DNA of 61,031 nucleotides. Origin: a virus. Taxonomy: Duplodnaviria > Caudoviricetes. Within the stretch, counting starts at the first letter, position 1. Each line of letters opens with the position of its first letter. The DNA is taken from positions 1-61,031 of the IMG/VR virus record IMGVR_UViG_3300006920_000008. One strand, 5' to 3'. The translations under genes and the position numbers were made by a program. Below the pieces are notes generated by a model. That model was not told the DNA's origin, did no database searches, and saw only the letters and a list, made by a program, of their open reading frames with translations. Positions 3,618-60,961 of the stretch are shown here, one piece after another.

Positions 3618-3633
3618 GTGTCTTTGAAGACAC
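3618..3633. repeat. 16-bp palindromic motif, copy 1 (GTGTCTTTGAAGACAC)
   Basis: Directly after the SSB-like stop codon and before the terminator. Confidence 0.95.
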
Positions 3634-3906
3634 TTAGAATGGTAAGTCGGCATCAACCTCCTTTGCAGTTTCCTGCTTAGGTGTGTTGTCTGCTTTTGGT
3701 TTAGCCTCCCAAGTATCTAACTCACAATAGTAGTTGCCTCCTTTTGCTCGTTTGATGTCAAGGTTTACCCAACCGTTTTTAGCGTTAGCTTTTAAGAAAG
3801 CTATAGCCTCATCGACTTTAATTGATTGCTTCCCTACTACAAATTCAGGAGCATTGTCGTTTCTCTTAAATGAGAAACCATCTGCAAAAACTTTTTCTTC
3901 TGCCAT
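3634..3906 (-). CDS. putative single-stranded DNA-binding protein
   Basis: 90 aa with acidic DADLPF C-terminus; next to the recombination genes. Confidence 0.6.
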   Translation of the reverse strand: MAEEKVFADGFSFKRNDNAPEFVVGKQSIKVDEAIAFLKANAKNGWVNLDIKRAKGGNYYCELDTWEAKPKADNTPKQETAKEVDADLPF

Positions 3907-3908
3907 TT

Positions 3909-4046
3909 TTAATTGATTTTAATTGTTCGTTCCAAATGATTAATAATTCCGAGGATAACATTATCTTTCTCCCCACGACTGATGCAGTTGATTGGAACTT
4001 CCAACCACATCACTCGCTTTCTTTTTTTAAAGAGTAGCTTCCACAT
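3909..4046 (-). CDS. small hypothetical protein (45 aa)
   Basis: Manual ORF MWKLLFKKRKRVMWLEVP...; fills the gap in the operon. Confidence 0.45.
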   Translation of the reverse strand: MWKLLFKKRKRVMWLEVPINCISRGEKDNVILGIINHLERTIKIN

Positions 4047-4749
4047 AATATTCGTTTATATCATATTGAGGATTCTCTCCAAAGAACTTTTTGTATACTT
4101 CAATTGCTCTTTCTACTTTCTCTTCCCCACGTTGAAGAAATTCTTCTGATGGTTTAAAGATTCCAAGTTGCAAGTTAGTCTTATCTACAACATAAAAAAC
4201 TAACGGCTTACCAAATAGTTGTTGGTAGATATAGCACTGACTGTCATAATTGTATTTTCTTGCACTCCACTTAAAATCAGATATTGAACTTGTAGTTTTC
4301 AGGTCAATTAATTTATCGCTACAAACGATGTCTGCTTTACCTTTCCACTTCATCCCTTTTATCTCCTTAATAGATGGAACTTCATACTCGTTACCTTCCT
4401 GACGTATACCTTCAAAGAATGGTAAGTTACCCATCATTGCTTGAACACAATCACGAATCTCTTGTCCTTCCTTTTCTAACATAATAATCCCGTTAGATGC
4501 TTGTTCTTTGTATGCCTTCGTGTTTCTTGATGACACTCCAATGAACTCAGTTTCTTCTGCCTTCTCCGGCTCAAGGATTAATTGATGAAAGTATCTTCCT
4601 TTGTGAAAGTTTACATTATCATCTTGAGGTTTACCAAACATAGTTGGATTACTCAATAGCGTACCGATGTCTGAATTAGATAAGAACTGCTTACCGAACT
4701 CCCCATAGTATTGGGTGTCATCTTTTAGTTTTTCTATTAACTCTTTCAT
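4027..4749 (-). CDS. RecE/exonuclease VIII-like PD-(D/E)XK nuclease (DUF3799-like)
   Basis: LSNSDI, G..FH..ILEP, KGKADI...IDLKTT, YNYDSQCYIY. Confidence 0.8.
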   Translation of the reverse strand: MKELIEKLKDDTQYYGEFGKQFLSNSDIGTLLSNPTMFGKPQDDNVNFHKGRYFHQLILEPEKAEETEFIGVSSRNTKAYKEQASNGIIMLEKEGQEIRDCVQAMMGNLPFFEGIRQEGNEYEVPSIKEIKGMKWKGKADIVCSDKLIDLKTTSSISDFKWSARKYNYDSQCYIYQQLFGKPLVFYVVDKTNLQLGIFKPSEEFLQRGEEKVERAIEVYKKFFGENPQYDINEYYVEATL

Positions 4750-5414
4750 TTGATTAGATTTTTGATTTCATTCTTAGCTGCTGCACTCAATGTATACTTT
4801 GTACCAACCTTATCACATAGCTTCTTGAAACCTAATGACTTGTTTTCTTTACAAAAGTTTGCCATTGCACTCCACTTCTCATCAGACACATCTAACTTAG
4901 GTTTGCTTGGTGTCTTTGAAGACACTTCTTTCTTAGTAGTTGGCTGAGGTTCGCTTGTAGTAGTTGGCATATCTTCTCCTGCATAGATATAAATACCCAT
5001 ACCGAACATTGCAAGATTCTTAACTAAACATCTCATAAGAGTTTTGTTTATATCAAAAGATGTTGCTGCTGCTACTTGCTTCTCTCCGTATCTTGTTTGA
5101 TACGAATAAGGAACTTTCTTCATTGCCTGATTCTTACTATCCATTACCGGCAACCACATTGATAATGTTTCTCCGTTAATAGTTACGTTAGTCTCACACA
5201 TAAAACCTAATGCTTCATCATAGACGTAAGGATTTCCTTGTTCATCTTTAATGATTTCATAAGTTGCATCCGGACATACTTTCTTAGTTTCGCTCCAAGC
5301 GAATGCCCAAGATAAATAAGTTAATCCGTTTTTCTTTTCAACGTACTTGTTTACGTTGATTGCAGATAGTTTCTCAAACGTTGTCTGCTTCTTCTCTGTT
5401 GACTTTGTTGCCAT
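4746..5414 (-). CDS. Sak/Rad52-like single-strand annealing protein (DUF1071-like)
   Basis: EKKNGLTYLSWAFAW, MWLPVMD, INKTLMRCLVKNLAMFGMGIYIYAGED. Confidence 0.85.
   Translation of the reverse strand: MATKSTEKKQTTFEKLSAINVNKYVEKKNGLTYLSWAFAWSETKKVCPDATYEIIKDEQGNPYVYDEALGFMCETNVTINGETLSMWLPVMDSKNQAMKKVPYSYQTRYGEKQVAAATSFDINKTLMRCLVKNLAMFGMGIYIYAGEDMPTTTSEPQPTTKKEVSSKTPSKPKLDVSDEKWSAMANFCKENKSLGFKKLCDKVGTKYTLSAAAKNEIKNLIK
4910..4925. repeat. 16-bp palindromic motif, copy 2 (intragenic, encodes VSSKT)
   Basis: GTGTCTTTGAAGACAC. Confidence 0.95.
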
Positions 5415-5826
5415 AATTTAATTGATTTAATTGATTTAATTTTGAATTGATTTCTGAATACTTATTTAGTATTCTTTCTCTACTTGATTTTAAAATTCCT
5501 ATCTGCTTCTCAGACTTTTTATCATTGATATATTGTTTGATTCGTTGCTCAATGATATCAAGCTTTGAACGATAGTTAGACAAAGATAAGACAAAAACTC
5601 CATATCTCCAACCTTTTTCTGTAAAAGATTTTAATTCATCTTCGGTTATTGATATGTAATAATCCCCTCCTTTCATAGTGTTTAGTATTTGAATTGTACC
5701 GGTCTCTTTGTCCTTCACAATCTTTGTCCCGTACACCATTTTGGATTGGTATCCATCTCCATCTAAGGAGATTGCATAAGTATCTTCCATTGCCTGAGCA
5801 AATATATCTTCCAAACTATACTTCAT
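5374..5826 (-). CDS. hypothetical protein
   Basis: 150-aa ORF in the operon. Confidence 0.7.
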   Translation of the reverse strand: MKYSLEDIFAQAMEDTYAISLDGDGYQSKMVYGTKIVKDKETGTIQILNTMKGGDYYISITEDELKSFTEKGWRYGVFVLSLSNYRSKLDIIEQRIKQYINDKKSEKQIGILKSSRERILNKYSEINSKLNQLNQLNYGNKVNREEADNV

Positions 5827-6118
5827 CTTCGTTTAATACTGATTCTATTGTTTCGATATAATCAACATCACTTTCAAGTTTACTTTTTACTTGTGAGATT
5901 CCGTGATGTATAGATGAATGTGGAATAACATATCCATTCTCTGCCATATACTCTTGAATATAAACCAACCTCATTGGTCTAACGTGACAGAGATAATATA
6001 GAAGATGTCTTGCATCTACTACATCTCTTCGCTTTGTTTTGGTAAATAACATTTCTTTGTCAATCCCAAAAAGGTAGCAAACCTTGTCTACATACTTATT
6101 AAAAATTGTTGCCTTCAC
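5816..6118 (-). CDS. DnaA C-terminal-like HTH protein
   Basis: TKRRDVVDARHLLYYL...HSSIHHG resembles the DnaA domain IV signature (R..AMYL...DHTTV.H). Confidence 0.65.
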   Translation of the reverse strand: MKATIFNKYVDKVCYLFGIDKEMLFTKTKRRDVVDARHLLYYLCHVRPMRLVYIQEYMAENGYVIPHSSIHHGISQVKSKLESDVDYIETIESVLNEDEV

Positions 6119-6311
6119 TTGATTTTGATTTTAAATTATCTCTTGACCTGCCTGAAAATATTTCAGCCCAAGCTTCAAAGATTTCGTTTAACACTTTTTT
6201 TGTTTCTTCATTTGAATACTGTGCCTCTCGGTAAGTATCATCTAAATAATCTCTTAAGTTTTGAGATTCTTTTTCACGCTCCTCTTGGAACATTTTTTTT
6301 GATTTTGACAT
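6099..6311 (-). CDS. hypothetical protein
   Basis: Likely start MSKSKK at 6311. Confidence 0.6.
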   Translation of the reverse strand: MSKSKKMFQEEREKESQNLRDYLDDTYREAQYSNEETKKVLNEIFEAWAEIFSGRSRDNLKSKSSEGNNF

Positions 6312-6375
6312 ATGATTTAATTTAATTGATTGAATGGTAAAGATAGTAAAAGTATATGGCTTGACCAAATTTTGT

Positions 6376-6645
6376 CTAACTTTTATCTTCTTTTTTGCAC
6401 TGAACTCTATATAAGATTAAGTATCCAATCAAGTCAAGAAGAGTATCCTCCGTCTTGTCATTAATTCCTACCGTCTTTATCCTGCTCAGCTTGTCATCTA
6501 TTCTCGCAAGGATTCCCTCCTTAGCAGATAGCTTTGAGAATATTTTTGGTGGCTTGTTAGCCGTGTCTCCGTATGCTTTATTTTTTTCAAGCAGGAGCAT
6601 AACTACCTCCCTGCCTACCTCTTTAATTAATTCTTCTGTTTTCAT
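6376..6645 (-). CDS. DUF1599/Nmad1-like helical nucleotide-associated protein
   Basis: KNKAYG...ARIDDKLSRI...EDTLLDLIGYLIL. Confidence 0.75.
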   Translation of the reverse strand: MKTEELIKEVGREVVMLLLEKNKAYGDTANKPPKIFSKLSAKEGILARIDDKLSRIKTVGINDKTEDTLLDLIGYLILYRVQCKKEDKS

Positions 6646-6878
6646 TTTACTATTTGATTATACATAAATTCTTCTACCAAATTCAAATCGTTTGAACGCT
6701 TACCCCTGCCAATGCCTGATGGTCTGTATAAAAACTTTCCATTCTTTAGCATTTCGATGTAATGTTCTCCTGCGTACATAATAACATCTGTTGTATGTTG
6801 ATGTAGAATTGATACATCCGGGACCGCTTGTATCTTTTGAATTTGCCCGGTGTTTATAAATGATTTAATTGATTCCAT
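6642..6878 (-). CDS. hypothetical protein
   Basis: Likely start MESIKS at 6878. Confidence 0.6.
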   Translation of the reverse strand: MESIKSFINTGQIQKIQAVPDVSILHQHTTDVIMYAGEHYIEMLKNGKFLYRPSGIGRGKRSNDLNLVEEFMYNQIVK

Positions 6879-6879
6879 T

Positions 6880-7257
6880 TTAATTATTAAATAATTGATT
6901 ACACATAATTTTTTCAGCACCTGCCAAAGTTTTGTATAGTTTAGGTTTGTCTCCCGAGATTCCACTCCAAAGATATTTGTATTCTTTTTTTTCTTTGTTT
7001 GGCTGAATCTTTTCAATATAGTTTAGACCTAAATAGAGATAAACCTCAACCACAAAATCATTAAGCCTTGGTGGATTAGCATAGGTTTTTAAAAATACTG
7101 AAGGATTTAGTTTTCTTCTTGTCATACGATATTCTTTCGCTCCGTATGTATCGCCATCCATTGCTTGTTGAACTTTCTGAATAGCAACCTTGTTGTCTGT
7201 TCCTGAGTCAAGCTTTAACTCAAGTAGATGCTCTCGCATCAAATGTTTCATATCCAT
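6880..7257 (-). CDS. hypothetical protein
   Basis: 125-aa ORF in the operon. Confidence 0.65.
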   Translation of the reverse strand: MDMKHLMREHLLELKLDSGTDNKVAIQKVQQAMDGDTYGAKEYRMTRRKLNPSVFLKTYANPPRLNDFVVEVYLYLGLNYIEKIQPNKEKKEYKYLWSGISGDKPKLYKTLAGAEKIMCNQLFNN

Positions 7258-7263
7258 AATAGA

Positions 7264-7503
7264 TTATTTTACTTCACTGATACCACATTCGATTGCATCC
7301 CCCACGATTGGATGCCCTGCGATTTCAGTTGCTTGTTTATTTGGTGGGAGATTCATAATGAGACCTTCTTCATTCACGACTAATAGTTTCTCGTTTAAGT
7401 AAACGAACTCTATGTATCCCTGAACTAAGTCTTGCATTTTCTTTAATGATGAGATGTCTACATTTGGTATCACCTCACCGCTTGATTTGATTAATCTTGC
7501 CAT
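7264..7503 (-). CDS. DUF3846-like protein
   Basis: MQDLVQGYIE..VNEEGL..LPPN..A...IVGD. Confidence 0.7.
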   Translation of the reverse strand: MARLIKSSGEVIPNVDISSLKKMQDLVQGYIEFVYLNEKLLVVNEEGLIMNLPPNKQATEIAGHPIVGDAIECGISEVK

Positions 7504-7550
7504 AATAATTTAATTTGATTTATACGAAAGTACGAATTTTATTAGACGTA

Positions 7551-7784
7551 TCAAAATTTTATGTCTGTTATTTTAGCGTACCAATATCCCTTGATTAACT
7601 TCTTGTCTGCTTTGTGGAACCATCTTTCTCTTTGATTGTCTGTCTGTTCAAGATGCCTGATTAACATATCAAGTCCATCCTTGATTCCTTTATGCTCTGC
7701 TGATGTATGGCTATCGTTTACCCATTCATCATCTGCCTTTATGTCTTCTGCTATTCTTTTGATTCTGTTTAATTCTATTTTCAT
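7551..7784 (-). CDS. hypothetical protein
   Basis: Likely start MKIELN at 7784; the GTG start in the ORF track comes from the palindrome. Confidence 0.6.
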   Translation of the reverse strand: MKIELNRIKRIAEDIKADDEWVNDSHTSAEHKGIKDGLDMLIRHLEQTDNQRERWFHKADKKLIKGYWYAKITDIKF

Positions 7785-7796
7785 TTTATTGGATTT

Positions 7797-7830
7797 AAAA
7801 AAAGGATGTGTCTTTGAAGACACACCCCTC
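7797..7830 (-). terminator. intrinsic terminator whose core is palindrome copy 3 (7808-7823)
   Basis: Minus-strand RNA GGGG-UGUGUCUU-CA-AAGACACA-UCCU followed by a U-tract. Confidence 0.75.
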
Positions 7831-7841
7831 GGATTATTAAT

Positions 7842-8921
7842 TTATTGTTTGCTGAAATTTAATATCTCATCTTCCTTAAACCAACCACCACAAGAAGAGC
7901 AGTAGTAGTTGTGAAACATATCGTGTTCAACATCATTGAAACAATCAATACAAGTTGGTGTCTCTGATGTTGGGAAATCATTGTCATCCCAACCGATGTC
8001 TATTGCTTGATGATTCTCAGTTGCATCATAAGTTGGCTGAACATCATCGAAAGTAAAACTTCGCTGAGGATAAACCCTTGTCTGTTTGTACTCACTATGT
8101 AACTCTGTGTCCGGATGAATGTCCTTTGGATTAAAGTATATCCAACAATTCAATGTTCTATTCTTTAGCTTTACCGGTATCTGAACTCTCTTGTACCACT
8201 GCGGATGTCCCTCAAGTTGGTCAACCTTTTTAAGTTGCATATCGCTAACCTTGAATACATCAACCACAACATTGTGACCTACACCTTTTTTGTTTACTAA
8301 GAATGGTAACCCATCAACAATTAAAGGATATTTGTCTTGTGTCTTTCCTCTACCAATGTGCTTTGCATTTGTAAGGTAAGAGTAATAGTTGTTGAATCCT
8401 TTCTTTAATGTTCCATACACCGCAATCAGATTGTCTTGCAATACATTTGCTTTTGAATACCAAATGCCATCACGATATGTATACATATTGCGATTGTAAA
8501 TTTGGAATGAACGAGTACGAACATTTACTGAAACAAATCTTGAATCATACTGCTCAAGATGTGTCTTCCAATTTCTACGATTCATTGAGCCAAGCTGAAT
8601 AGCTAATGCTTTTGAATCACATAACTCTGCACTACCAAGTCCTTTGATTGTTCCATTCATCATAAGGTATTCATCTTTGTTGTTACCACATACAAATGGA
8701 TGAGTGTTTGCTCTGTTGATTGCACCGACTGTTGCATATCTAAAGTGAGCAATGAATGGTCTCTTTGTTATTAGTTTACGATAGTCTTTTGATTTGTGGT
8801 AAGTTACCTCAAAGGTATCTAACCAAATGATTCCTAATCCGTGAGGATTAATTTTTGATGATGTCTTTGCTATCTCTTCAGACATCACATTGTTTTTCTG
8901 TTTAATAATAATTACACACAT
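7842..8921 (-). CDS. class II glutamine amidotransferase fused to gamma-glutamylcyclotransferase (AIG2-like) and a Zn ribbon
   Basis: N-terminal Cys2, HFRYAT.G..NTHPF, NG, DS; VYGTLKKG...DQLEGHP.WY.R; CIDC..CSSC. Confidence 0.85.
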   Translation of the reverse strand: MCVIIIKQKNNVMSEEIAKTSSKINPHGLGIIWLDTFEVTYHKSKDYRKLITKRPFIAHFRYATVGAINRANTHPFVCGNNKDEYLMMNGTIKGLGSAELCDSKALAIQLGSMNRRNWKTHLEQYDSRFVSVNVRTRSFQIYNRNMYTYRDGIWYSKANVLQDNLIAVYGTLKKGFNNYYSYLTNAKHIGRGKTQDKYPLIVDGLPFLVNKKGVGHNVVVDVFKVSDMQLKKVDQLEGHPQWYKRVQIPVKLKNRTLNCWIYFNPKDIHPDTELHSEYKQTRVYPQRSFTFDDVQPTYDATENHQAIDIGWDDNDFPTSETPTCIDCFNDVEHDMFHNYYCSSCGGWFKEDEILNFSKQ

Positions 8922-8942
8922 AGTGATTTGAATTTGCGAGGA

Positions 8943-8958
8943 GTGTCTTTGAAGACAC
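8943..8958. repeat. 16-bp palindromic motif, copy 4 (5' leader)
   Basis: Between the promoter at 8985 and the start at 8921; hairpin extended by GAGG/CCTC. Confidence 0.95.
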
Positions 8959-8984
8959 TGACCTCTGATTTATAATTGATTGAA

Positions 8985-8992
8985 CAAATATA
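8985..8992 (-). promoter_or_regulatory. Bacteroidota-type -7 promoter element (TATATTTG)
   Basis: Matches TAnnTTTG upstream of the GATase gene. Confidence 0.6.
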
Positions 8993-9017
8993 AGACTAAA
9001 TTTAGACATAACCTAAT

Positions 9018-9560
9018 TTAATCTAATAATTCTTTTTTAACTCTTTCCCAATAGATTTCTGTTGACTGCTTCTTGTGTCCTCTTGGTCCACCATTCCATT
9101 TTCTTGCAACGATTTCGAAGAACTCTAATTGAGTCAAACCTAAACAACATTCAACCTCTTCAGCCATTATGTCAAACATATCAATTGACTTCTGTCTGTT
9201 CCATCTGTCATTCATTTCGAACTTGAGATTGACCTTGTGTCCCCTGAGAACCCTGTTTACTTCCCTGACCATTATTGGTCTAATTTGTAGACAACCGACT
9301 GCCTTTTCTTTTTTATGGTATGCCGAATCATTACCTCTTGATTCTACATAGATGACTGCGTTAACGAAATCATCCCAGACAATTTTATGTTCCACTGTTA
9401 CCGGAACTGTGTCTACGGTATTTGCTACGGTGTCTGCTGATTGTAAAAGAAGGGAAGGAATTTCTTCCCTCCCGACTTCTGCAGTTTGTGTCTTTGAAGA
9501 CACATCACTGCCCACATATCCAACCACAGATAATGCTGATAGTAATATAAATTTTTTCAT
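9018..9560 (-). CDS. secreted lysozyme-like/lytic transglycosylase protein
   Basis: Signal-like N-terminus; VESRG, GCLQI, ARKWNGGP motifs. Confidence 0.7.
   Translation of the reverse strand: MKKFILLSALSVVGYVGSDVSSKTQTAEVGREEIPSLLLQSADTVANTVDTVPVTVEHKIVWDDFVNAVIYVESRGNDSAYHKKEKAVGCLQIRPIMVREVNRVLRGHKVNLKFEMNDRWNRQKSIDMFDIMAEEVECCLGLTQLEFFEIVARKWNGGPRGHKKQSTEIYWERVKKELLD
9488..9503. repeat. 16-bp palindromic motif, copy 5 (intragenic, VSSKT)
   Basis: GTGTCTTTGAAGACAC. Confidence 0.95.
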
Positions 9561-9745
9561 TTTGATTTGATTTGGTTATCTTCTTCTAAGAATACTTCAT
9601 CCAAGTAATATCCTTTTGTTCTGTGTATGTAAGCTATGAAATTATCCATATGCTTTTGGTCTTTAAACTCCTTGGTCAATGTCCAAAGAGATTTCCCTCT
9701 GCCGTAAGGAATCTTACCGGTTTCGAATTGTAATGTTGCTTTCAT
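9557..9745 (-). CDS. hypothetical protein
   Basis: 62-aa ORF overlapping the next gene by ATGA. Confidence 0.6.
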   Translation of the reverse strand: MKATLQFETGKIPYGRGKSLWTLTKEFKDQKHMDNFIAYIHRTKGYYLDEVFLEEDNQIKSK

Positions 9746-9746
9746 A

Positions 9747-9914
9747 TCATCTTGATTTTACTGCGTTAAACTTCGCTCTGATTATCCAAGGGAACTTGCT
9801 TATGTTGTCGTTATAAACTCTATCAATTGCTTCCCATTTAGAATGAGCAGGTAAGACTTTAATTAGCTTACCTGCATACCTAACTTTGTAGTAGTGTTGA
9901 ACTTCTCTATGCAT
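9747..9914 (-). CDS. small hypothetical protein (55 aa)
   Basis: Manual ORF MHREVQHYYKVRYAG...; fills the gap. Confidence 0.55.
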   Translation of the reverse strand: MHREVQHYYKVRYAGKLIKVLPAHSKWEAIDRVYNDNISKFPWIIRAKFNAVKSR

Positions 9915-10143
9915 TGTGTCTTTCTTTTATATCAGCTACAATTAAACCTATTGTTGCCCACATACAGAACAACAAGAATGCAAATACAATGAACATTGAC
10001 AATGCACCACTGATGGTCTGTAATAGACTTCTTGCATCGTTAAGTACAATGTGAATTAATAGTCTTCCCACCATTGAGAAAACTCCTAAAGTGATTGCGA
10101 TGTACAGAACTGATTCTGCGTAATTTTTGATTTGATTTTTCAT
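9907..10143 (-). CDS. small membrane protein (2 TM)
   Basis: Two hydrophobic stretches. Confidence 0.65.
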   Translation of the reverse strand: MKNQIKNYAESVLYIAITLGVFSMVGRLLIHIVLNDARSLLQTISGALSMFIVFAFLLFCMWATIGLIVADIKERHNA

Positions 10144-10164
10144 TTTATTATAAATTAAATTAAT

Positions 10165-10222
10165 GCTTCTGTTTCATCCTTTTGGAATCATCAGTCAAGG
10201 TACACACCTTGATACAGAAAGC
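10165..10222 (-). ncRNA. type III hammerhead ribozyme
   Basis: Minus strand GCUUUCUG-UA^UCAAGGU-GUGU-ACCUUGA-CUGAUGA-UUCC-AAAA-GGAU-GAAA-CAGAAGC: conserved core plus three stems. Confidence 0.8.
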
Positions 10223-10252
10223 AGTTTTACATCTTGCTTAGGATATTGTTTG

Positions 10253-11203
10253 TTATGGTCTGTATCCGTTTGTTAACAAATCTCTGTCGTACCATTTCTG
10301 TGCATCTAATCTTCGCATTGGGTCACAGAATGGAATTACATCACGATTCACTTTGTGAGTAAGAATCATCTTGCGGAATGATTTCGCCAAGGAGATTATC
10401 TCAGCCACTTTCGTTTCATCATTGTTGTACATTGACTTCACAATTGGTGTTACTCTTTTAAGGAATGTGTTATGACTTCCGTTAGGATTGTTGATTGAGA
10501 AATCAAGTAACTCATACATCAATTCGTATCTTCTCATCATCTGCTTTACAGATTGGAATCTGCTTGGCAATCTAAACTCGATGCAGTTACCTTTCACAAG
10601 GATAACTTTGTATCTACCACCACCCCACATCATTGAATCTGTTGTGTCTGATGGCATCAATGTCATATTACCTCGGCAGTAAGAATTGTTTAATCTCTTA
10701 CGGAATAAAGACATAATGATTCCGGCATTCTTACGAACTGCTTCGAGCAAATCATCTCCACTCATACCTTGAACTGCGATTGTGATATGTCCACCACAAT
10801 TTGTTGAACTTGGAGAGTATTGGTCCTCGATTACTTTTCTCGCTTCAAACATCATATTGAAAACTTTGTTTCTCCACTTTCCACTTGGTAGTAATGGAAG
10901 AATGTTTGTCACTGCTTCATAGCCACAAGAAGAATCTCTTTCGAATCCGCAAAACAATGGGTATTCTTTCACTGCACCTCTGTGCAATCTGTTCTTCTCT
11001 ACTTCCATTCCGATAGTGAATTTAGAATCGTAGTTACCATCGCCTAAATCGACAAGGTTACGTTTCTGTGAAGACTTCAATGCTTTAATATCTGAAGACT
11101 TTGCACCTTTCGACATATCTCTGAAAGATGGCTTTCTGTGGTAAGAAGACATAACTCCTCTATCTCTTCTACCTTCTGTTGTGTATTGAATTTCTGTACT
11201 CAT
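10253..11203 (-). CDS. putative amidoligase (COOH-NH2 ligase, Amidoligase_2-like)
   Basis: TIGMEVE, ERDSS, YEAVT, CGGHITI, RYK, IEFR; likely start MSTEIQ. Confidence 0.75.
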   Translation of the reverse strand: MSTEIQYTTEGRRDRGVMSSYHRKPSFRDMSKGAKSSDIKALKSSQKRNLVDLGDGNYDSKFTIGMEVEKNRLHRGAVKEYPLFCGFERDSSCGYEAVTNILPLLPSGKWRNKVFNMMFEARKVIEDQYSPSSTNCGGHITIAVQGMSGDDLLEAVRKNAGIIMSLFRKRLNNSYCRGNMTLMPSDTTDSMMWGGGRYKVILVKGNCIEFRLPSRFQSVKQMMRRYELMYELLDFSINNPNGSHNTFLKRVTPIVKSMYNNDETKVAEIISLAKSFRKMILTHKVNRDVIPFCDPMRRLDAQKWYDRDLLTNGYRP

Positions 11204-11223
11204 AATATCTGTGGTTTTAGATT

Positions 11224-11239
11224 GTGTCTTTGAAGACAC
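11224..11239. repeat. 16-bp palindromic motif, copy 6 (intergenic)
   Basis: GTGTCTTTGAAGACAC about 20 bp upstream of the amidoligase start. Confidence 0.95.
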
Positions 11240-11241
11240 TA

Positions 11242-11886
11242 TTATTGATTAATTGAATTTTGTAAAAACTGAATTGCGTTTGCAATCTCTTCTAAATTGT
11301 TACCGGATACATTTCCTTGGTCATCAATTCTAATAGATAGATTTGTTCCGTTAGGATTTTTGTATGTCATCACAAATTGATAGTTAACTCTATCTTGCTC
11401 TACAGATGCTTCAGCAATTACTTCTGCTTCTGCTTCAGCAATCTCTTCTTCTGTAGCATCTTCACTAACTTCAATAGCAGTTAAATCTATTGTTCTGCTA
11501 AACTCAAGCAATCCGGCAATTGAACGATTTGCATCTTGTCCGACTTCATCACATTTAGTGTTGAATGCATCTACTATTCTTTGGTCAAGGTTAGCCACCT
11601 TGATTAGCTTGTAGAAGAATGACTTCTGATATCCGAAGACTTTCTTACCGAACTCTTCTTTGTTCCATTCAATTCCCTCTTCACGAAAGATTGCTTTTGC
11701 TTCATCACTTCCGAACCATTCAACTGCTTCGCCAATTAGCTTAGCAAGTTTTGTTGTGTGATTGAATTTGCTCTTGTGAGCATTGTCGATTGAACGCTGA
11801 ATGCGTTTCACTTCATTTAGTTTCAGTGATTCTTTCACTGATGGCATTCTTAAGAATGCATTTTCGATTTCTAATAATTGACTCAT
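11242..11886 (-). CDS. hypothetical protein, first gene of the leftward arm
   Basis: 214 aa with an acidic linker. Confidence 0.75.
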   Translation of the reverse strand: MSQLLEIENAFLRMPSVKESLKLNEVKRIQRSIDNAHKSKFNHTTKLAKLIGEAVEWFGSDEAKAIFREEGIEWNKEEFGKKVFGYQKSFFYKLIKVANLDQRIVDAFNTKCDEVGQDANRSIAGLLEFSRTIDLTAIEVSEDATEEEIAEAEAEVIAEASVEQDRVNYQFVMTYKNPNGTNLSIRIDDQGNVSGNNLEEIANAIQFLQNSINQ

Positions 11887-12097: not shown

Positions 12098-12113
12098 GTG
12101 TCTTCAAGGACAC
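12098..12113. repeat. 16-bp palindromic motif, copy 7 (variant GTGTCTTCAAGGACAC)
   Basis: One mismatch to the consensus; lies in the divergent intergenic region. Confidence 0.8.
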
Positions 12114-12205
12114 TATGTAATAGCTTTTACTCAAGGAATGGAGGAGAGGAGAGGAAGAACAGACAAACAACAGGAGATGTAACCGGAAGACGAGACGTTA
12201 AACGT

Positions 12206-12246
12206 CAGCAGCAGCAGCAGCAATATGTATTGCAGCAGCAGCAGCG
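12206..12246. repeat. CAG trinucleotide runs
   Basis: (CAG)5 CAA...(GCA)4 in non-coding DNA. Confidence 0.8.
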
Positions 12247-12394
12247 ATGAGGTCAAATAAAAAGCTAAAAAAATCCGGATGCGAGGATAAAAAGCATACC
12301 CCACCCCTCTAAAAAAAATCGGTTTTCGTTTTGGGGTCCGGCTGCGTGTGCCCGGGGGGAACCTAAACAGTATACATACCTAATATATTTTTTG

Positions 12395-12402
12395 TATATT
12401 TG
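12395..12402 (+). promoter_or_regulatory. -7 promoter element TATATTTG
   Basis: TAnnTTTG 16 bp before the ATG at 12419. Confidence 0.6.
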
Positions 12403-12418
12403 TACAAAAGCATTAGAT

Positions 12419-12613
12419 ATGAAAATGAAATTTCAAAGTATGGGAGGTCTTAGAGTTGAGAAGGGAAGACTTATCAATGATAGACCCGATGGTATTACAG
12501 GTATCGCACAAGCTGCTCAATTGCGAAAGACTTTACATAGAGCAAGGAAAGTTGATATGATGGCTGACGGCATAGAACTTGCTGAAGGCAGAAAGAACTT
12601 CTACAGAATGTAG
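12419..12613 (+). CDS. small hypothetical protein
   Basis: MKMKFQSMGGLRVEKGRLINDRP..., flanked by a promoter and a terminator. Confidence 0.7.
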   Translation: MKMKFQSMGGLRVEKGRLINDRPDGITGIAQAAQLRKTLHRARKVDMMADGIELAEGRKNFYRM

Positions 12614-12640
12614 TTGATTTTGATTTGATTGATTGATAGG

Positions 12641-12674
12641 AAAGGAGGAGCATAATATGTTCCTCTTTTTTTTT
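12641..12674 (+). terminator. intrinsic terminator, possibly bidirectional with the tRNA
   Basis: GAGGAGCATA/TATGTTCCTC stem plus T9. Confidence 0.7.
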
Positions 12675-12675
12675 G

Positions 12676-12749
12676 TACACCCATCAGGATTCGAACCTGA
12701 GACCTACTCATTAGAAGTGAGTTGTTCTATCCAACTGAACTATGGGTGC
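12676..12749 (-). tRNA. tRNA-Arg (anticodon TCT), CCA not encoded
   Basis: GCACCCA acceptor stem, D-arm AGTTGGATA, anticodon arm ACTCA-CTTCTAA-TGAGT, T-loop GGTTCGAATCC. Confidence 0.93.
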
Positions 12750-12751
12750 AT

Positions 12752-15819: not shown

Positions 15820-15937
15820 AAAACTTGTACCATATTTCTCTGCAGCTATAAAAAAGAATGGCAATCCTGATAAGTGGTCAGGACAGGCTAAACAAAAATA
15901 TATAGACAACAGTCCTTATAAAAAAATAAAGAGGTAA
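15809..15937 (+). CDS. small basic protein
   Basis: MMNKKLVPYFSAAIKK...; overlaps both neighbours. Confidence 0.5.
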   Translation: MMNKKLVPYFSAAIKKNGNPDKWSGQAKQKYIDNSPYKKIKR

Positions 15938-16294
15938 TGCCAAAAGATGCTTGTTACAGAAAGGCAATGAAGAGTTACGGTAAGTGGTCGGCTCGAGCTG
16001 CACAAGCAACTGCTAAGTGCCGTAAAAAAAAAGGTAAGGTACGAAAGACTGAGGCAGGTTCTAATTTAAAGAGGTGGACTAAAGAAAGATGGATAGATAC
16101 TCGAACAAACAAACCTTGGAACAGGAGGTAAGAGTGAATATTGTAGACCATCAAGAAGAGTGTCTTCAAAGACACCGGTTACCAAAAAAGAAATGTCACA
16201 AAAGACATTAAAGAAAAAACAATCTGAGAAAGCAAGAATCGGAAAACAAGGAGCCGGAGGTAGAAAAGTTAAGTCTGTTCGAAGAAGAAAATAA
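15937..16294 (+). pseudogene. basic Cys-containing phage protein with an apparent frameshift at ~16117
   Basis: MPKDACYRK...LKRWTKERWID...KP, then a second frame GTGGKSEYCRPSRRVSSKTP...RRRK*. Confidence 0.65.
16160..16175. repeat. 16-bp palindromic motif, copy 8 (GTGTCTTCAAAGACAC)
   Basis: Intragenic, encodes VSSKT. Confidence 0.95.
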
Positions 16295-28503: not shown

Positions 28504-28785
28504 ATGAAATCAAAAGAAATAAAATTAAAAATAATAGAAGCAGGTCACAGGGCAGTGGAACAACTGATAAAGGTGGCGAAGGAAGCGATTATTAAACAAG
28601 ACCCTGAGGATGACCTTTCTGCTGATAGATTAAAGAATGCAGCAGCTACTAAAAAATTAGCAATCTTTGATGCTTTTGAAATACTTAATCGTATAGAGGC
28701 TGAAAAGGATGCAATAGATTCATTAGAAAAAGGAACAAGTAAAACTGATACAAAACAAGGATTTGCAGAGCGAAGGTCTAAATAA
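28504..28785 (+). CDS. hypothetical, candidate terminase small subunit
   Basis: Helical 93-aa protein overlapping the terL start. Confidence 0.55.
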   Translation: MKSKEIKLKIIEAGHRAVEQLIKVAKEAIIKQDPEDDLSADRLKNAAATKKLAIFDAFEILNRIEAEKDAIDSLEKGTSKTDTKQGFAERRSK

Positions 28786-36099: not shown

Positions 36100-36134
36100 G
36101 GGGGAGTGTCTTTAAAGACACTCTCCCTTTTTTT
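36100..36134 (+). terminator. terminator whose core is palindrome copy 10 (36106-36121, GTGTCTTTAAAGACAC)
   Basis: GGGGGA-GTGTCTT-TA-AAGACAC-TCTCCC-T7. Confidence 0.85.
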
Positions 36135-51800: not shown

Positions 51801-54800
51801 AAACAAGACCACTAAACGAGCAAACTATTCTTGCAGGTACAGGTGTTTTTTCTATTGGAGAACAAGCAAACGTTTCTGATGTAAGAGAAGGGTTACCATC
51901 TTATAGAATTAAGAAAAATAGATTTGGAAGATTACAACAAGTTTCTAAAGAAGAGTTTGTTGAATTTATAAATGGACTTAGTCCTAATGAGTTGCTTCGT
52001 ATGAGTGCAACTGTAGATAATGATGATGAGGTATCTAAGTTAGTTTCTCGAAAGTTAGTTGAAGCAAACATTCAAGAAGCAAGAGGTGGTGCTCAAACAA
52101 CTACGGAAACTGAAACAGAGGTAAGAGATACTCCTGAAGCTGAAACAGAGGTAAGCGAAGAGCAAAGTGAAGTTCCTACAGAAACAGGCATTGTTCCTAC
52201 AACAACAGAAGAAGTGTCTTCAAAGACACAAACTGAAGAAACCACTCCGGCATTACCTGAGGGTACTCAAACAACTCCTGCTCTTAATCAAGGTCAAGGT
52301 CAAGCAAGTGTTGGTGTTATAGAAGAAACAAAAGAAACAGAAACCCAACAAGCGGCAGAGGACTTTGAGGCTTCACTAAAAGAAGAGGAATCAGGTAAAA
52401 AACCAAAGGTAGATTTCAGATTAGAGATAGATGAGACTACTGATGAAAATGCAAAACAAGAAGCTGAAGATGAAGTGACCAATGCAATAAACGCAATGGA
52501 AAGTCCAAACGTTGATGTTAAGATTACACCTGATGAAATGACATCAGAAAAGATTGATGTTGATGAACTAAATAGTAGAACAGATAGACCACTGAAGATT
52601 ACTAATCTTAAAGTTGTCAAGGGTGTTCCTACTATGTTTAGTATTACAGACCAACTAACAACAGGAACCGTTACTAATCCTGTTACGGGGAATGTAATTG
52701 AAGACCTTAAGGGTGCGATTGGTTTCAATGGAACTGTAGGCAATGAACAAGCAGCTTGGGCAAATGTGGAAGAGAAAGAGGCTCAGACTATTATAAGTAG
52801 AGCAGAAAAAATCTATCAAGAAAACCAAGAAATATTTAAAGATTTTTGGGCAAAGAATCCTGAGTACAATGGTTTGGTTCCAATGAACATTGTTAAGATG
52901 GGTCAAGATGCTATGCAATCTAACGAAGCAGTTGTAAGAGTGTTAGCAGATAATATAGGTACGTTGCCTAAGAGAAACAGAAAGTCAGCAGTTCGTGTTT
53001 TAAAAACACAGATGAAGGAGGACTTGGTTAAGTTAAAGGCTAAGCCTAAAAAGAACGCTACTGATAAAAAGAATATTAGAAACCTAACTGACCTATTAAA
53101 AAGATTTAGAGAAGGCAAGGTTACAACAATGGACCAAGCACTTACTCCTCAATTTATAGAGAATATGTCTCTACCTATGAGAGCAAAGTTGGTTGGATAC
53201 CTAACCACAGGAGTCATTCAGGAAGCTAAGGGTAAAGAAAAGAAAGTTGGAGGAGTAACTAAAAGCACAAAGGTTACAGTAAAAGAACTTTTGAAAGGTG
53301 TAGAACAGGATGCAGCTAAACTAAACTTGGCTCAGATAACTAATTTACTTACAGACCCACAACTAAAAAACGTACCTATTGGTAACGTTGTTGCGTTGGT
53401 TGGTGTTGATGTTTTAAATCCGGGTATCATAGAAACCACACATCCTAATTACAAATATGGTGTTAGAGGAAAGTCAATTGGTATACTTGAAAATCCACAA
53501 TCAATGGAGACGGTATATCCTAAAGCTTTCGAAAAGATAATGGCTAAGATGATTACCTCTGAATCAAGTGGTAAAAAGTTTGCTGCTAAAACAAAAAGAA
53601 CTCAAACAACAGGTGTGGGGATTGGTGTTCCGGATAAAGATTATATTGGTATTATGGCAACCATCAATCCTGATGAGTCTACCAAACTAAATGCATTTAT
53701 GAACTTAGCGTTCCCGTCTGTAGTAATAAATTCAGACGTAGATACATTCAACAATGTAATGTCTCAAGACAACGTTAGAACATATCTAAGAGGTGATGAA
53801 ATCATTTATGGTGTAACAGTGGATGGAGATATTTATATCAACCCTGAGGTGCACGAAACCAAGTCTTCCTTGTACAATACATCTATACACGAAATGGGTC
53901 ACGTTTGGACAGACTACTTACAGACAACAAAGAAAGGTAGAGAGATTTACAAGAAGGGTGCTGAGGTTGTTCAAGAAACTGAGGAGTTTAAAAAACAACT
54001 TAAAAGATTTGATGGTGATGTAGATAAAGCCACAAGAGAAGCTATGGCTATTCTTATTGGTAATAAAGGTGAGACAATAGTTAATGGTTCTATTAAGTCC
54101 AAGTTCAGCGAATGGTTGATTGGGATGTGGAATTATATCAAGTCTCAATTTAAAATGTCTAAAGACCTGTCAGCAGAAGAAATTCAAAACTTAACACTTG
54201 ATGAATTCTTAGGTACTGCATTAGCAGATATCTTTGCAGGTAAGCCACTGAAGATGACAGAGGCTCAAACAAAAGCTTTAAAAAACCCTGAAGCTATGTT
54301 TAGTTCCGGGATGAGTATAGATAGTATTATTCAGAAAGGAAGAGACCAAGGTATCCCTGATGAATCAATTAGAGTAGTCTTAAAAAACAGAGGCTTTAGT
54401 GCAACTGATATCAACAAGGCAATGGTAGTAAACATAGGATTAAGAGTTCCTATGCCAAGAGTTTTTGGAGATGTGAACGAAGGTGCGAAGGTTGGTTTTA
54501 GATTATTTAATAATGTAAGAACTGCAGTAAATAAATTTGCATTTGACAAGACGGGAAGAATTAAAACTTTTTCTGAGATAAGAGAAAAAGCATTTGATAC
54601 TTTAAAAGCCGACCCAATATTTAAAATTCAAACTGAACAATTACAGAACGAGTTACTTGTTGCATTTGATAGAGCACTTGGTATTAGAGGAAATGCTAAG
54701 GTTGCAAGAGAAATAAATAACATTAAGAAAAATCTTAAGCAAAGAAAGATAAGTGCAGATAATCTTACAGATGCACAAAGAAGAATGAGAATGATTATTC

Positions 54801-58462: not shown

Positions 58463-58463
58463 T

Positions 58464-59250: not shown

Positions 59251-59578
59251 TTTTTATTATATGTGATTTGATTGAGTTGTTATTTGATATAAAATCTAAG
59301 TATTCATCTACTTCTATTTCATTAAGGTCTACTAATATAGGTCTTTCTGTTTCTTGTTTTAAATATTCAACAACAAAAAATATGGGTTCTTCTTTTTTTA
59401 TTACACCTGCAACCTCTTGGGTCCATCCATTTTTTATTGGAAGAAACTCCATTACAGATACGGTTTGTCCAATGATTAAAGATGCATCATCAATACTGTA
59501 GTAGCTAAGCTGCTGATAAAACCAATCATCAACTTCATACGCTAACTCATCCTCTAAATACTTCAGTTGTAAATCCAT
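59168..59578 (-). CDS. hypothetical acidic protein
   Basis: 136-aa ORF. Confidence 0.55.
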   Translation of the reverse strand: MDLQLKYLEDELAYEVDDWFYQQLSYYSIDDASLIIGQTVSVMEFLPIKNGWTQEVAGVIKKEEPIFFVVEYLKQETERPILVDLNEIEVDEYLDFISNNNSIKSHIIKNEPIRNFILEGGAIQPPENDSEDSLRS

Positions 59579-59786
59579 ATTTCTCTAATTCTTTTAGTCT
59601 ATACTTTTGTAGTTCTGACACTTTACCTTTCGGTGTCTTGACTTCACTAAAGATTACATTAGAGTTTGGTGGTATAGCAAGAATATCCGGTATACCATTC
59701 TTATTTGTCTTAACTAATTTTAATACATAATATCCTTCAGCTTCTAACTGCTTTATTCTTTTTGATTGTATTTGTTGTTCAGTCAT
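59547..59786 (-). CDS. VRR-NUC domain nuclease
   Basis: MTEQQIQ...GIPDIL...FSEVKTPKGKVSELQ. Confidence 0.85.
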   Translation of the reverse strand: MTEQQIQSKRIKQLEAEGYYVLKLVKTNKNGIPDILAIPPNSNVIFSEVKTPKGKVSELQKYRLKELEKYGFTTEVFRG

Positions 59787-59965
59787 CCGTTCTTTTTGTA
59801 ATCCTCAAAGAAGCCTATGGCAACAATAAGGTTCATACTTAATGATGATGCAATCTCTATTACATCGTGATAGTTGTGAATAGACAGGTGTATGTGACCT
59901 ACTACCCAAAAAGGAATTGCTAAGTTTTGACTAATCCAAATCAGTAAAAATCTTAAGAACCTCAT
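59783..59965 (-). CDS. small membrane protein
   Basis: Hydrophobic; TATATTTG (-) at 59970-59977. Confidence 0.55.
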   Translation of the reverse strand: MRFLRFLLIWISQNLAIPFWVVGHIHLSIHNYHDVIEIASSLSMNLIVAIGFFEDYKKNG

Positions 59966-59984
59966 ATAACAAATATAAAATATT

Positions 59985-60302
59985 TTATTGGAAGTTATAT
60001 CTATAGTTATGCCTTTCGACTTCTATCTTTTGATTTGAAAAGCAAGTCATTCCATTTATATGACTATCGGTAGGTACAAAGTAATGCCACCTTTTTATGC
60101 CGGGGATGTAGTAGAAAAAGAATGCTGCTCTTTTCCCCGTGTTCTTTTCATAAATAACAGTTGCAGTATGGTCGCTTGTTGGTATAATTTCCTGCACACT
60201 AAAAGTTTCATTATTGTAGTTGTTCTTTCTTTCTTTATTAGAATACCTTCTACACACCTCATCAGTAAATGATTGTAGTTGTTTTGCTATTTGTTTATTC
60301 AT
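59985..60302 (-). CDS. hypothetical protein
   Basis: 105-aa ORF. Confidence 0.65.
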   Translation of the reverse strand: MNKQIAKQLQSFTDEVCRRYSNKERKNNYNNETFSVQEIIPTSDHTATVIYEKNTGKRAAFFFYYIPGIKRWHYFVPTDSHINGMTCFSNQKIEVERHNYRYNFQ

Positions 60303-60961
60303 ATTATCTTTTTAAAATGATTTACTGTAAAGTCCTTCTTCTTTGATACTGCTTTATAAATATCTTTTTCTATTCCACCCTTAGCGAATATCCAATACAC
60401 ATCTGATTCCAATCTATCTTTAGTTGTCATTCTATCTCTTGACTGCCAATAGCTTGTAGCACTAAAGTCTATGTTATAATATACAAGTGCCTTTGCTTTT
60501 CGTAAGGATATACCCTCACGACCTGATACAATTTGTAAGGCTATAGACTTACTTGTGTCTTCAAAGACACTGAGTTCTGTACACAGTTGGTCCCCGTATA
60601 TCTTCTTAAGTGCGTTCAGTTCTTCTTTAAACTTATAGAAGATACCAATCTTTACATCTGCAAAGTTGTCGTGTATGAATTGTGCTTTTGAATAATCTAT
60701 AATTGTTGAGTTGCCTGACTCAAACTTAATGGTCCCTGAGTACAATTGATGAAGCTTCATCATAAGCTTTACGGGAGTGTCTCCAAGTATAACTTCTTCC
60801 TTCCCTTCTACTACCCTATGTTTTTTTAATTGAGCCGTAAGCTTCTTTGTAATTGGCTCAACATCTACCTCAAGTATGTGTTCACGGGTATCTACCTTAA
60901 ACCCTGCCTCTTTTTGTGAGTAAGAAATAGTATATGGTTTCATCTCATCAATAATCTTTTG
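60299..60961 (-). CDS. SF2 helicase, C-terminal part (joins 774-1; about 478 aa in total)
   Basis: KLHQLYSG, SGREGISL (motif V), YWQSRDR (motif VI). Confidence 0.9.
   Translation of the reverse strand, partial: QKIIDEMKPYTISYSQKEAGFKVDTREHILEVDVEPITKKLTAQLKKHRVVEGKEEVILGDTPVKLMMKLHQLYSGTIKFESGNSTIIDYSKAQFIHDNFADVKIGIFYKFKEELNALKKIYGDQLCTELSVFEDTSKSIALQIVSGREGISLRKAKALVYYNIDFSATSYWQSRDRMTTKDRLESDVYWIFAKGGIEKDIYKAVSKKKDFTVNHFKKII
60555..60570. repeat. 16-bp palindromic motif, copy 12 (encodes VFEDT in the helicase)
   Basis: GTGTCTTCAAAGACAC on +. Confidence 0.95.

Follow-up and report, generated by a model that had tools for sequence, protein, structure and literature searches.

The Palindrome and Its Sites in the Window

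The DNA analyzed here is IMG/VR virus record IMGVR_UViG_3300006920_000008 (Caudoviricetes), positions 1 to 61,031, referred to below as the window. The window spans a complete viral genome (61,031 bp), which carries direct terminal repeats. Within and between its genes lie repeated copies of a 16 bp palindrome, GTGTCTTNNAAGACAC (GTGTCTT-YR-AAGACAC), which is a perfect inverted repeat of the 8-mer GTGTCTTY. The palindrome has 11 exact matches, at positions 3618, 4910, 7808, 8943, 9488, 11224, 16160, 28969, 36106, 52214, and 60555. When up to two mismatches are allowed, the number of sites is 12, the extra one being the copy at 12098 (GTGTCTTCAAGGACAC). The two center bases are always a pyrimidine followed by a purine; on the + strand they read TG in six copies, CA in five (the one-mismatch copy included), and TA in one.

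A first-pass annotation of this DNA had listed 12 copies and held that their frequency was far above chance. Every coordinate it gave is correct, 11 copies being exact and one carrying a single mismatch. The exact palindrome is found in none of 100 dinucleotide-preserving shuffles of the window, and sites with up to two mismatches average 0.27 per shuffle, with a maximum of 2. The pattern read backwards has no match in the window. The annotation had also named an assembly or adapter artefact as a possible refutation. Such an artefact is ruled out, because the motif-bearing early region recurs in independent DNA runs and in relatives. That is, at least 94% of the words sampled from 9 kb of the early region are found in contigs of 14 public DNA runs from eight studies, and independent relatives hold the motif at orthologous places. 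The 14 runs are labeled marine, freshwater, and estuary metagenomes.

Genes were called crudely, as the longest open reading frames (ORFs) starting with ATG. The "GTG starts" at 7823, 11239, 16160, and 3633 in mechanical ORF lists are the motif itself and not real starts. The layout of the copies between genes is as follows. The copy at 3618–3633 (− strand) abuts the TAA stop of ORF 3634–3906, and its center reads CA in the direction of the − strand genes. After a gap of 11 nucleotides (nt) comes a distinct GC hairpin bearing a U-run, and the segment 3575–3640 (−) folds into two hairpins at −26.8 kcal/mol. The copy at 7808–7823 (−) is the apex of a 13 bp hairpin that is followed by a U-run (−18.0 kcal/mol, z −4.6) and lies after gene 7842–8921; the hairpin and U-run look like an intrinsic terminator for that gene. 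The copy at 8943–8958 (−) is 21 nt upstream of the ATG of the same gene and 59 nt past the upstream stop. A TAnnTTTG box, which we take to be a Bacteroidota promoter box, lies 34 nt upstream of this copy and likewise at three orthologous sites. The copy at 11224–11239 (−) is a bare intercistronic hairpin with a 6 bp stem and a 4 nt loop (−7.1 kcal/mol), 2 nt past the stop of one gene, here called gp214, and 20 nt before the ATG of the next, gp316. The one-mismatch copy at 12098–12113, for which no strand is assigned, has A11 changed to G on the + strand. It sits in the 530 nt non-coding region between divergent operons, and two relatives (G013 and G031) share the variant. The copy at 36106–36121 (+), with center TA, is the apex of a terminator (−21.5 kcal/mol, z −5.5) after the gene for a head protein of 483 amino acids (aa).

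The remaining copies are in or beside coding sequence. The copy at 4910–4925 (−) lies in the Sak-like annealing-protein gene, 4746–5414 (−), where it encodes VSSKT in the inter-domain linker. VSSKT is also the reading of the copy at 9488–9503 (−), just past the signal-peptide-like N terminus of the SLT-domain ORF 9018–9560 (−), called a lysozyme earlier; a second strong hairpin follows this copy. The copy at 28969–28984 (+) encodes CLQRH in the N-terminal part of the large terminase gene, 28763–30991. The copy at 52214–52229 (+) encodes VSSKT in the gene for a giant protein of 2971 aa, and the copy at 60555–60570 (−) encodes VFEDT in the helicase gene, with its center TG in sense. The copy at 16160–16175 (+) falls past the stop of ORF 15937–16131, at the GTG opening a 44 aa ORF; in four relatives it is inside an ORF of 112–122 aa, in frame VSSKT. 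Thus, the earlier count of six coding copies in three readings is correct as to the VSSKT, CLQRH, and VFEDT frames, and the 16160 copy, which had been placed within a "basic protein" gene, follows a stop in the window. The segment 15937–16294 (+) holds two short ORFs of 64 and 44 aa in different frames where the four relatives have the single longer ORF, so the window's copy of this gene may be frame-shifted, by a true frameshift or by an assembly error.

Conservation of the Sites and Distribution of the Motif

The coding sites are kept at fixed places while their flanks diverge, as seen in alignments of orthologues from seven genomes. At the terminase site, 16 of 16 columns are invariant, compared with 40–46% of the flanking columns. 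At the helicase site, all 16 columns are again invariant and the orientation is the same in all seven genomes, compared with 23–50% of the flanking columns. The giant gene carries its site in all seven genomes in frame 0 at a relative position of 0.30–0.39, with 14 of 16 columns invariant and with flanks that cannot be aligned. At the orthologues of the 36106 site, after the head gene, the copy is retained and the flanking arms vary between genomes yet still pair.

It had been proposed that selection acts on the nucleotides of the motif rather than on the encoded peptide, and this is borne out. Among 89 terminase genes, the codons at the motif place form the exact motif in 28, a near-motif in seven, and another sequence in 54. 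In those 54 the peptide varies freely, e.g., VYKRS, CFSRS, and IHSRS. Because the peptide varies so freely among relatives, it is not what is kept. Together with the 16 invariant bases in the terminase and helicase genes, set among diverged flanks, this indicates that selection acts on the nucleotides and not on the peptide.

The terminase site arose through point changes in a pre-existing peptide, without insertion. On a terminase tree built with FastTree, the exact-motif state changes 13 times, and at least eight of these changes are forced by well-supported branches. Either the site was repeatedly gained and lost, or the gene was exchanged between lineages. Among the 89 relatives (loci L144–L216 and others), even very close terminase genes can be quite unlike at the motif site: the motif is present in L162, and its close neighbor on the tree, L169, differs at 5 of the 16 bases.

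Counting the motif in relatives as well as in the window shows that it is specific to a phage clade. The exact 16-mer is present in more than 119 stretches of the viral collection, a lower bound. With up to one mismatch, the motif is found in all 37 related viral contigs searched, each of at least 19 kb, and the backwards pattern has no match in any of them. Fifteen of 16 near-complete genomes have 9–21 copies each, and the last, G030, has just one. No copy occurs in elemoA, a cultured relative. The pattern GTGTC-N6-GACAC is absent from 12 motif-less fragments, a pattern that is too narrow, since two of the 12 (G044 and G038) carry variants outside it. The motif-less status is safe only for the complete genome G030, which keeps its single copy. 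No other palindrome with 6 bp arms occurs in more than two copies in G030. Fragments G040–G043, scanned with 5 bp arms only, contain only A/T-rich or low-count palindromes, none in more than seven copies.

In a scan of bacterial and archaeal genomes, one for each of 185,579 species, the matches listed are single sites in unrelated phyla, and no multi-copy bacterial chromosome is among them. The exception among the matches listed is a 56 kb contig binned as Cytophagales, with at least five sites, which has the size of the phages of the clade and resembles them. The motif is therefore a cis element of the phage clade, and a cis-acting site is what the first-pass annotation had inferred. The same annotation likened it to parS/matS or DNA-uptake sequences, and that likeness finds no support: the matches listed give no enrichment in host-type chromosomes, and the intergenic copies are at cistron ends beside elements that form RNA 3′ ends. 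Family scans covered about 40 of the approximately 70 window ORFs, and no ParB-like family was found among those scanned. Nor does the motif behave as a REP/RAYT element, as the matches listed include no multi-copy chromosome and the window proteins scanned include no transposase family.

An RNA Helix and Its Neighbors

Base pairing often continues beyond the motif. In seven genomes, at least three contiguous flanking base pairs extend 17 of 57 intergenic copies, compared with none of 44 coding copies and 5.4% of random positions. A G·U pair on one strand is an A·C mismatch on the other, so that a duplex-only structure, or one formed on both strands, would give equal counts of the two. Counted along the coding direction of the adjoining genes, the pairs of 22 extended helices (10 genomes) are 97 Watson–Crick, 28 G·U, and 2 A·C. 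The excess of G·U is on the sense strand, and therefore the helix is in the transcript. Thus, a sense-strand RNA helix extends many intergenic copies. The loop center of intergenic copies, in sense, is CA in 42, TG in 11, TA in six, and CG in one.

The surroundings of the intergenic copies were classified for the 64 copies that are co-directional with their neighbors in 10 genomes. Thirteen precede a hammerhead core, 10 are terminator apexes, six precede a T-loop minihelix, three have a U-run no more than 60 nt away, and 32 are bare; among the latter, four are in fact the terminase site, which the ATG-only ORF rule miscalled. Ribozymes, terminators, and tRNA-like elements thus lie in physical association with motif copies.

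A G+C-rich hairpin followed by a U-run, the mark of an intrinsic terminator, is present at 36106, at 7808, and at the 10 apex copies just counted. Bare copies, such as the weak 11224 hairpin with no U-run, lack it, as does every coding copy. Some terminators thus use the motif as a module, and it is not in itself a terminator. In motif-less relatives, the head gene is likewise followed by this terminator, there with an unrelated apex, so the motif adds something beyond termination.

The window has one hammerhead ribozyme, of type III, at 10166–10220 (−), between gp316 and the next gene (Rfam 34.8 bits, E 9e-4). No motif copy stands in front of it; its orthologue in G016 has one. Relatives carry one to four hammerheads in early-region spacers. 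Scored with Rfam RF00008, the hammerheads of the clade reach 34.8–42.9 bits, which is below the gathering score of 48.5, with E values from 4.6e-6 to 9.4e-4. They contain the core CUGANGA ... GAAA and the three helices of type III. In their alignment, 97% of cells are paired and compensatory changes are seen at 11 of 15 pairs. A covariance model built from this alignment finds 18 hammerheads in eight motif-bearing genomes and one weak match in elemoA; none is found by this model in G007, G008, G030, MW202828, or six motif-less fragments. The window ribozyme scores 74 bits with the clade model (R1) by construction, as its sequence is in the model seed. The clade hammerheads are predicted to be self-cleaving.

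A motif copy lies 5′ of 15 of the 18 hammerheads, at a gap of 2–7 nt in 13 cases and 25 nt in two. On the 3′ side, no motif was seen in the 60 nt downstream, which were read by eye rather than scanned.

The tRNA-like elements form a family of minihelices of about 45 nt, built of an acceptor-like stem, the conserved sequence AATGGT, and a T arm containing GGTTCGAnTCC. They are found in the early-region spacers of G007 (57.1–58.3 kb, L128), G013 (55.15 kb, L131), G032 (56.1 kb, L134), G008 (1.6–3.9 kb, L361), and G002 (55.4–55.7 kb, L359). Five to six motif copies are directly followed by such a minihelix. In Rfam, only one of the minihelices has a match, a weak one to the end of tmRNA.

The annotation had left the choice between a site for a dimeric protein and an RNA hairpin. 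The hairpin has now gained direct support from the extended helices, the G·U asymmetry, and the ribozyme coupling; a DNA-binding operator stays its main rival and is weighed below.

Lineage Variants and a Candidate Reader

Several lineages carry their own form of the motif. The uncultured relative MW202828 has 14 identical copies of GTGTCGTTAACGACAC and none of the window form, positions 6 and 11 having changed together. In RNA, the window form is GUGUCUU..AAGACAC and the MW202828 form is GUGUCGUUAACGACAC. The MW202828 variant in the Sak gene occupies the same linker and frame as the window's 4910 copy. G038 has three copies of GTCTGTT-NN-AACAGAC, and L152 has GTGCCTTCAAAGGCAC at one site, the terminase site. 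G044, of which 40 kb of a record about 67% complete are available, has GTGTTTT-YR-AAGACAC at both sites found; this C-to-T change in one arm keeps a G·U pair on the sense strand only, at both sites. To summarize, the copies of any one genome are alike, and where genomes differ, pairing is maintained. Because of this, a reader that recognizes the sequence and co-evolves with its sites is suggested.

Three − strand genes of what is taken to be the early region, gp214 (11242–11886), gp316 (10253–11203), and gp359 (7842–8921), are present in all 10 motif-bearing genomes compared, MW202828 included. None of the three occurs in G030, which is complete and has a single motif copy, in the 50 of 61.7 kb examined of elemoA, or in one motif-less fragment that includes the early region. 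In a search of 16 near-complete genomes, gp214 was found in 15, all with at least nine copies of the motif, and was missing from G030.

Of the three proteins, gp359 carries a GGACT domain (E 2.5e-21), and its N terminus, which starts MCVIIIK, resembles class II amidotransferases, a weak match that is below the cut-off. The gp316 model, which is of low confidence (predicted local distance difference test, pLDDT, 60), matches only carboxylate-amine ligases, among them glutamine synthetase, YbdK, and PafA, and does so weakly (best E 1e-3, TM score about 0.3). Both gp359 and gp316 look like enzymes, and their domains presumably belong to the trio known as the phage "amidoligase" module. This leaves gp214 as the candidate motif reader, a candidacy based on co-occurrence. 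Of the possible binders named in the first-pass annotation (a wHTH protein, DnaA-like proteins, and the protein at 11242, here gp214), it alone has gained some support. A phage-encoded reader is plausible since bacterial genomes, among the matches listed, show only single sites and since gp214 co-occurs with the motif.

The gp214 protein has 214 aa, belongs to no known family, and is encoded by the first ORF past the divergent non-coding region. Its model has a helical domain, an acidic linker, and a small α/β domain (pLDDT 79.6). In the ESM Atlas it falls in viral clusters, with a weak DUF3102 lead. The scans of gp214 detected no DNA-binding family, the helix-turn-helix included.

The Phage and Other Features of Its Genome

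The large terminase matches those of phages of Flavobacterium (68 records), Cellulophaga (15), Tenacibaculum (2), and Maribacter (1), all at 47% identity or less. The closest match is MW202828, at 75.6% identity. A near-identity search of a phage collection with 25 kb of the window gave no match. Genes are on the − strand at 1–12 kb and 57.8–61 kb and on the + strand at 12–57.7 kb. PHROG and Pfam scans name a primase-helicase, the Sak-like annealing protein, an exonuclease, GroEL, the large terminase, a portal, head proteins, and a collagen-like tail fiber. There are two giant proteins, of 1549 and 2971 aa, the first of which matches a "virion structural protein" family. No sign of a repressor, an integrase, or a lysogeny module was seen, no search having been aimed at them.

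In the divergent region, a tRNA-Arg gene (anticodon UCT) at 12675–12749 (−) is on the strand opposite to its neighbor, 12419–12613, and a hairpin that looks bidirectional lies beside it at about 12640–12675. The 530 nt non-coding region that holds the 12098 copy also contains a run of CAG repeats, interrupted once, at 12196–12250 (+). Downstream of the repeats, a G+C-rich stretch at 12300–12365 looks structured. A protein with a VRR-NUC nuclease domain (E 9e-10), encoded at 59547–59786 (−), is conserved in nearly all relatives.

A second palindrome, GGACCT-NN-AGGTCC, was considered and found to be unrelated to the motif: it is a codon repeat (Gly-X-Y) of the collagen-like tail-fiber gene at 22.6–24.1 kb. 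Similarly, the 11 copies of GGACC-NNNN-GGTCC at 22682–24030 (+) reflect the Gly-Pro-X-Gly-Pro codon pattern of that gene.

Interpretation and Alternatives

We tentatively favor the reading that the motif is a sequence-specific RNA stem-loop placed at cistron ends and read by a clade-specific factor. The palindrome would be the DNA image of a stem-loop with a 6 bp stem, GUGUCU/AGACAC, and a UYRA loop. The clade would place this stem-loop past stop codons, at terminator apexes, and immediately 5′ of type III hammerheads or tRNA-like minihelices. Since copies sit in these positions, mature phage RNAs would end in the hairpin or a few bases after it. A trans-acting factor of the clade, for which the early protein gp214 is the best candidate, would recognize the hairpin by its sequence, and its binding might cap the phage messages and make them more stable, or adjust how strongly they are expressed. 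On long messages, the copies within genes would give the factor additional places to bind. A more specific version of this proposal, which we consider unlikely as a whole, is that the phages of this clade, flavobacterial and abundant in aquatic settings, mark their own messages with a single sequence-specific 3′ stem-loop that gp214 reads as a dedicated protein, the ends being made interchangeably by hammerheads, by tRNA-like substrates of RNase P/Z, and by terminators.

A number of observations weigh against the stem-loop reading. The perfect dyad, with its symmetric pyrimidine-purine center, is as expected for a dimeric DNA-binding protein. The absence of any flanking helix at coding copies is hard to explain if the hairpins are 3′-end caps, and half of the 64 intergenic copies adjoin no recognized 3′-end element; in MW202828, most copies are isolated, set between a stop and the ATG that follows it. 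The TG center, opposite to the commonest orientation, is fixed in sense at the helicase site and is also seen at 11 intergenic sites. One-mismatch variants follow no clean G·U rule: clearly intergenic variants are G·U-compatible in five cases and C·A in one, and those labeled coding are split two to six. G007 carries both orientations of the position 6/11 variant. As to the reader, the fold search of the gp214 model against the PDB gives a best E of 0.91 and no assignment, that is, no recognizable RNA- or DNA-binding fold, and the link between gp214 and the motif hinges on one complete genome with a single copy, G030. Many of the sites counted above are orthologous to one another, and independent events are therefore fewer than the counts suggest. 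The RNA data are metatranscriptome contigs only, from relatives that are 90–95% alike, in which no RNA starts or ends are visible. In two studies, RNA contigs break off at 8951 and 8962, near the 8943 copy, which is a weak hint at most. An apparent "joint" of 4938 to 11224 in RNA contigs was discarded, as it is merely two motif copies on the contig of another phage.

The main rival, which we regard as somewhat unlikely, takes the motif for an operator in duplex DNA: a dimeric phage-encoded protein would bind the many sites and block or tune transcription, and at copies in terminators or beside ribozymes, the hairpin in RNA would be incidental or would be an additional use of the palindrome. 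The inverted repeat of GTGTCTTY and its symmetric center are what such a protein would contact, the copies are identical within each genome, and both half-sites changed together in MW202828. An operator also accounts for the conserved coding copies, which then need no RNA explanation, and for the position of the 8943 site and its three orthologues about 20 nt downstream of the presumed promoter box. The co-occurrence of gp214 fits an operator as well, and in Cluster O mycobacteriophages, the passages on a comparable repeat suggest dimeric regulatory proteins (PMC4351075). A duplex site, however, needs no pairing in its variable flanks, and here they pair with 28 G·U to 2 A·C in sense, without the strand neutrality of stoperator and repressor sites. 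The 15 copies that adjoin hammerheads are all on the 5′ side and nearly abutting, and the bias of the center (CA 42 versus TG 11) follows transcription. The same one-arm change at two sites of G044 is unexpected for a homodimer, and gp214 has no DNA-binding family in the scans to support the role.

Other explanations keep the hairpin in RNA or do without a reader. The hairpin might be the cleavage site of a sequence-specific endoribonuclease, from phage or host, that splits the polycistronic early RNA and so does the same job as the hammerheads and tRNA-like elements of neighboring spacers. In MW202828, the motif is alone in all eight clearly intergenic spacers, 3–65 nt past the stop and 16–38 nt before the next ATG, and like spacers of relatives hold hammerheads or minihelices, which are known RNA-cutting signals; phage hammerheads that flank genes have been proposed, in the passages on them, to process long transcripts (PMC3088659). 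Cleavage is nevertheless an improbable role, because cutting at the conserved copies in the terminase, helicase, Sak, and giant genes would destroy those messages, a cleavable hairpin 2–7 nt before a cutting ribozyme is redundant, and no nuclease family is recognized among the co-occurring genes. We consider it highly improbable that the motif is a functionless repeat, i.e., a short homology spread or homogenized by recombination and carrying ribozyme or gene cassettes. The repeated promoter and stem-loop cassettes of T4-type phages have been proposed to spread in this way. The gene content of the early region between copies differs much among relatives, the phage encodes a Sak-like annealing protein and an exonuclease, and passages on Cluster O phages describe deletions apparently due to recombination between repeats (PMC4351075). 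A passive repeat, however, would hardly be held at fixed places and frames in genes whose flanks have diverged beyond alignment. The origin of the terminase site by point changes without insertion, and its eight or more forced changes of state, fit selection better than passive spread, and 16 bp are short for homologous exchange. Barely credible, finally, is a hairpin promoter for a virion-carried RNA polymerase, with one of the giant virion proteins as the polymerase, after the fashion of coliphage N4, whose virion RNA polymerase uses hairpin promoters. The terminase relates the phage to podophages, the genome encodes the proteins of 1549 and 2971 aa, the first with its "virion structural protein" match, and many copies are 16–30 nt before early-gene start codons. 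Yet copies have terminators 11–12 nt downstream or are themselves terminator apexes with U-runs, others are inside late genes, and the giant proteins have no sequence match to solved polymerases (none for the 2971 aa protein, chance-level only for the 1549 aa one).

Relation to Known Systems and Significance

The closest described element is the dyad repeat of Cluster O mycobacteriophages. Cresawn et al. (2015) report a 17 bp repeat, 5′-TGTTCGG-NNN-CCGAACA, in more than 30 copies within and between genes and missing from the host (PMC4351075). Its function is unexplained; in the passages on the repeat, the authors saw little orientation bias and favored dimeric DNA-binding proteins (PMC4351075). 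As far as those passages go, the two elements share 7 bp invariant arms around a short variable center, G/C-rich flanks, and many copies inside and between genes, mostly at the same places in related phages and not in the host. They differ in sequence (the present motif versus TGTTCGGNNNCCGAACA), in host phylum, in phage type, and in the center, which is 2 nt here and 3 nt in Cluster O. In addition, the sense-strand G·U evidence and the ribozyme coupling found here are not reported in the passages on the Cluster O repeat. The motif is thus the same kind of element as that repeat and not the same element. It had been said not to be a described element, which is true of its sequence, as three 16-mers are absent from the literature searched; the general kind, iterated short dyad repeats of phages, is described in Cluster O (PMC4351075).

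As to the ribozymes, Perreault et al. (2011) found several hammerheads in the spacers of one transcription unit, which were thought to cut long phage transcripts into gene-length messages (PMC3088659). The hammerheads of the present clade are likewise gene-flanking phage ribozymes in spacers. Unlike those in the passages of PMC3088659 on phage hammerheads, which mention no conserved upstream hairpin, 15 of the 18 have a 16 nt stem-loop 2–25 nt upstream, and the stem-loop is far more frequent than the ribozyme. In the literature searched, neither the combination of a conserved stem-loop with ribozymes, tRNA mimics, and terminators nor strand-specific RNA evidence for such a repeat was found.

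Better-known systems are similar in part. The stoperators of L5 and the inverted repeats of phiC31 are repressor sites of temperate phages that act on DNA, the L5 sites being asymmetric. With these the motif shares many copies of one short intergenic site, a single phage protein as the possible reader, and lineage co-evolution; unlike them, its flanks indicate RNA structure. The stem-loop at the 3′ end of histone mRNA is also 16 nt, with a 6 bp stem, a 4 nt loop, and a conserved sequence; it sits a few bases upstream of the 3′ end and has a dedicated protein, features to which the putative reader and ends of the phage stem-loop would correspond. There is no homology between the two, the histone system belongs to another domain of life, and the phage motif is also found inside coding regions. 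The hairpin or REP-type stabilizers at the 3′ ends of bacterial mRNAs are alike in a possible mode of working and not by family. The RNase III hairpins of T7, too, lie between the genes of operons and shape or stabilize message ends; unlike those sites, which are longer, imperfect, non-identical, and cut by a host enzyme, the core here is 6–7 bp and strictly conserved.

The comparative data, i.e., the strand-specific wobble pairing and the ribozyme coupling, place one iterated phage dyad repeat in RNA, and they do so for a phage that is widespread, as its recovery from public DNA runs of eight studies indicates. The hairpin–ribozyme cassette is a ready-made natural insulator part for Bacteroidota genetics. 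If the stem-loop reading is true, the system would be a bacterial-virus counterpart of the histone stem-loop system, and it could allow the phage to distinguish its transcripts from those of the host or to control when early messages decay. It would also show how a virus of bacteria without classical ribosome-binding sites organizes and stabilizes its polycistronic messages, by means of a hairpin together with ribozymes and tRNA mimics.

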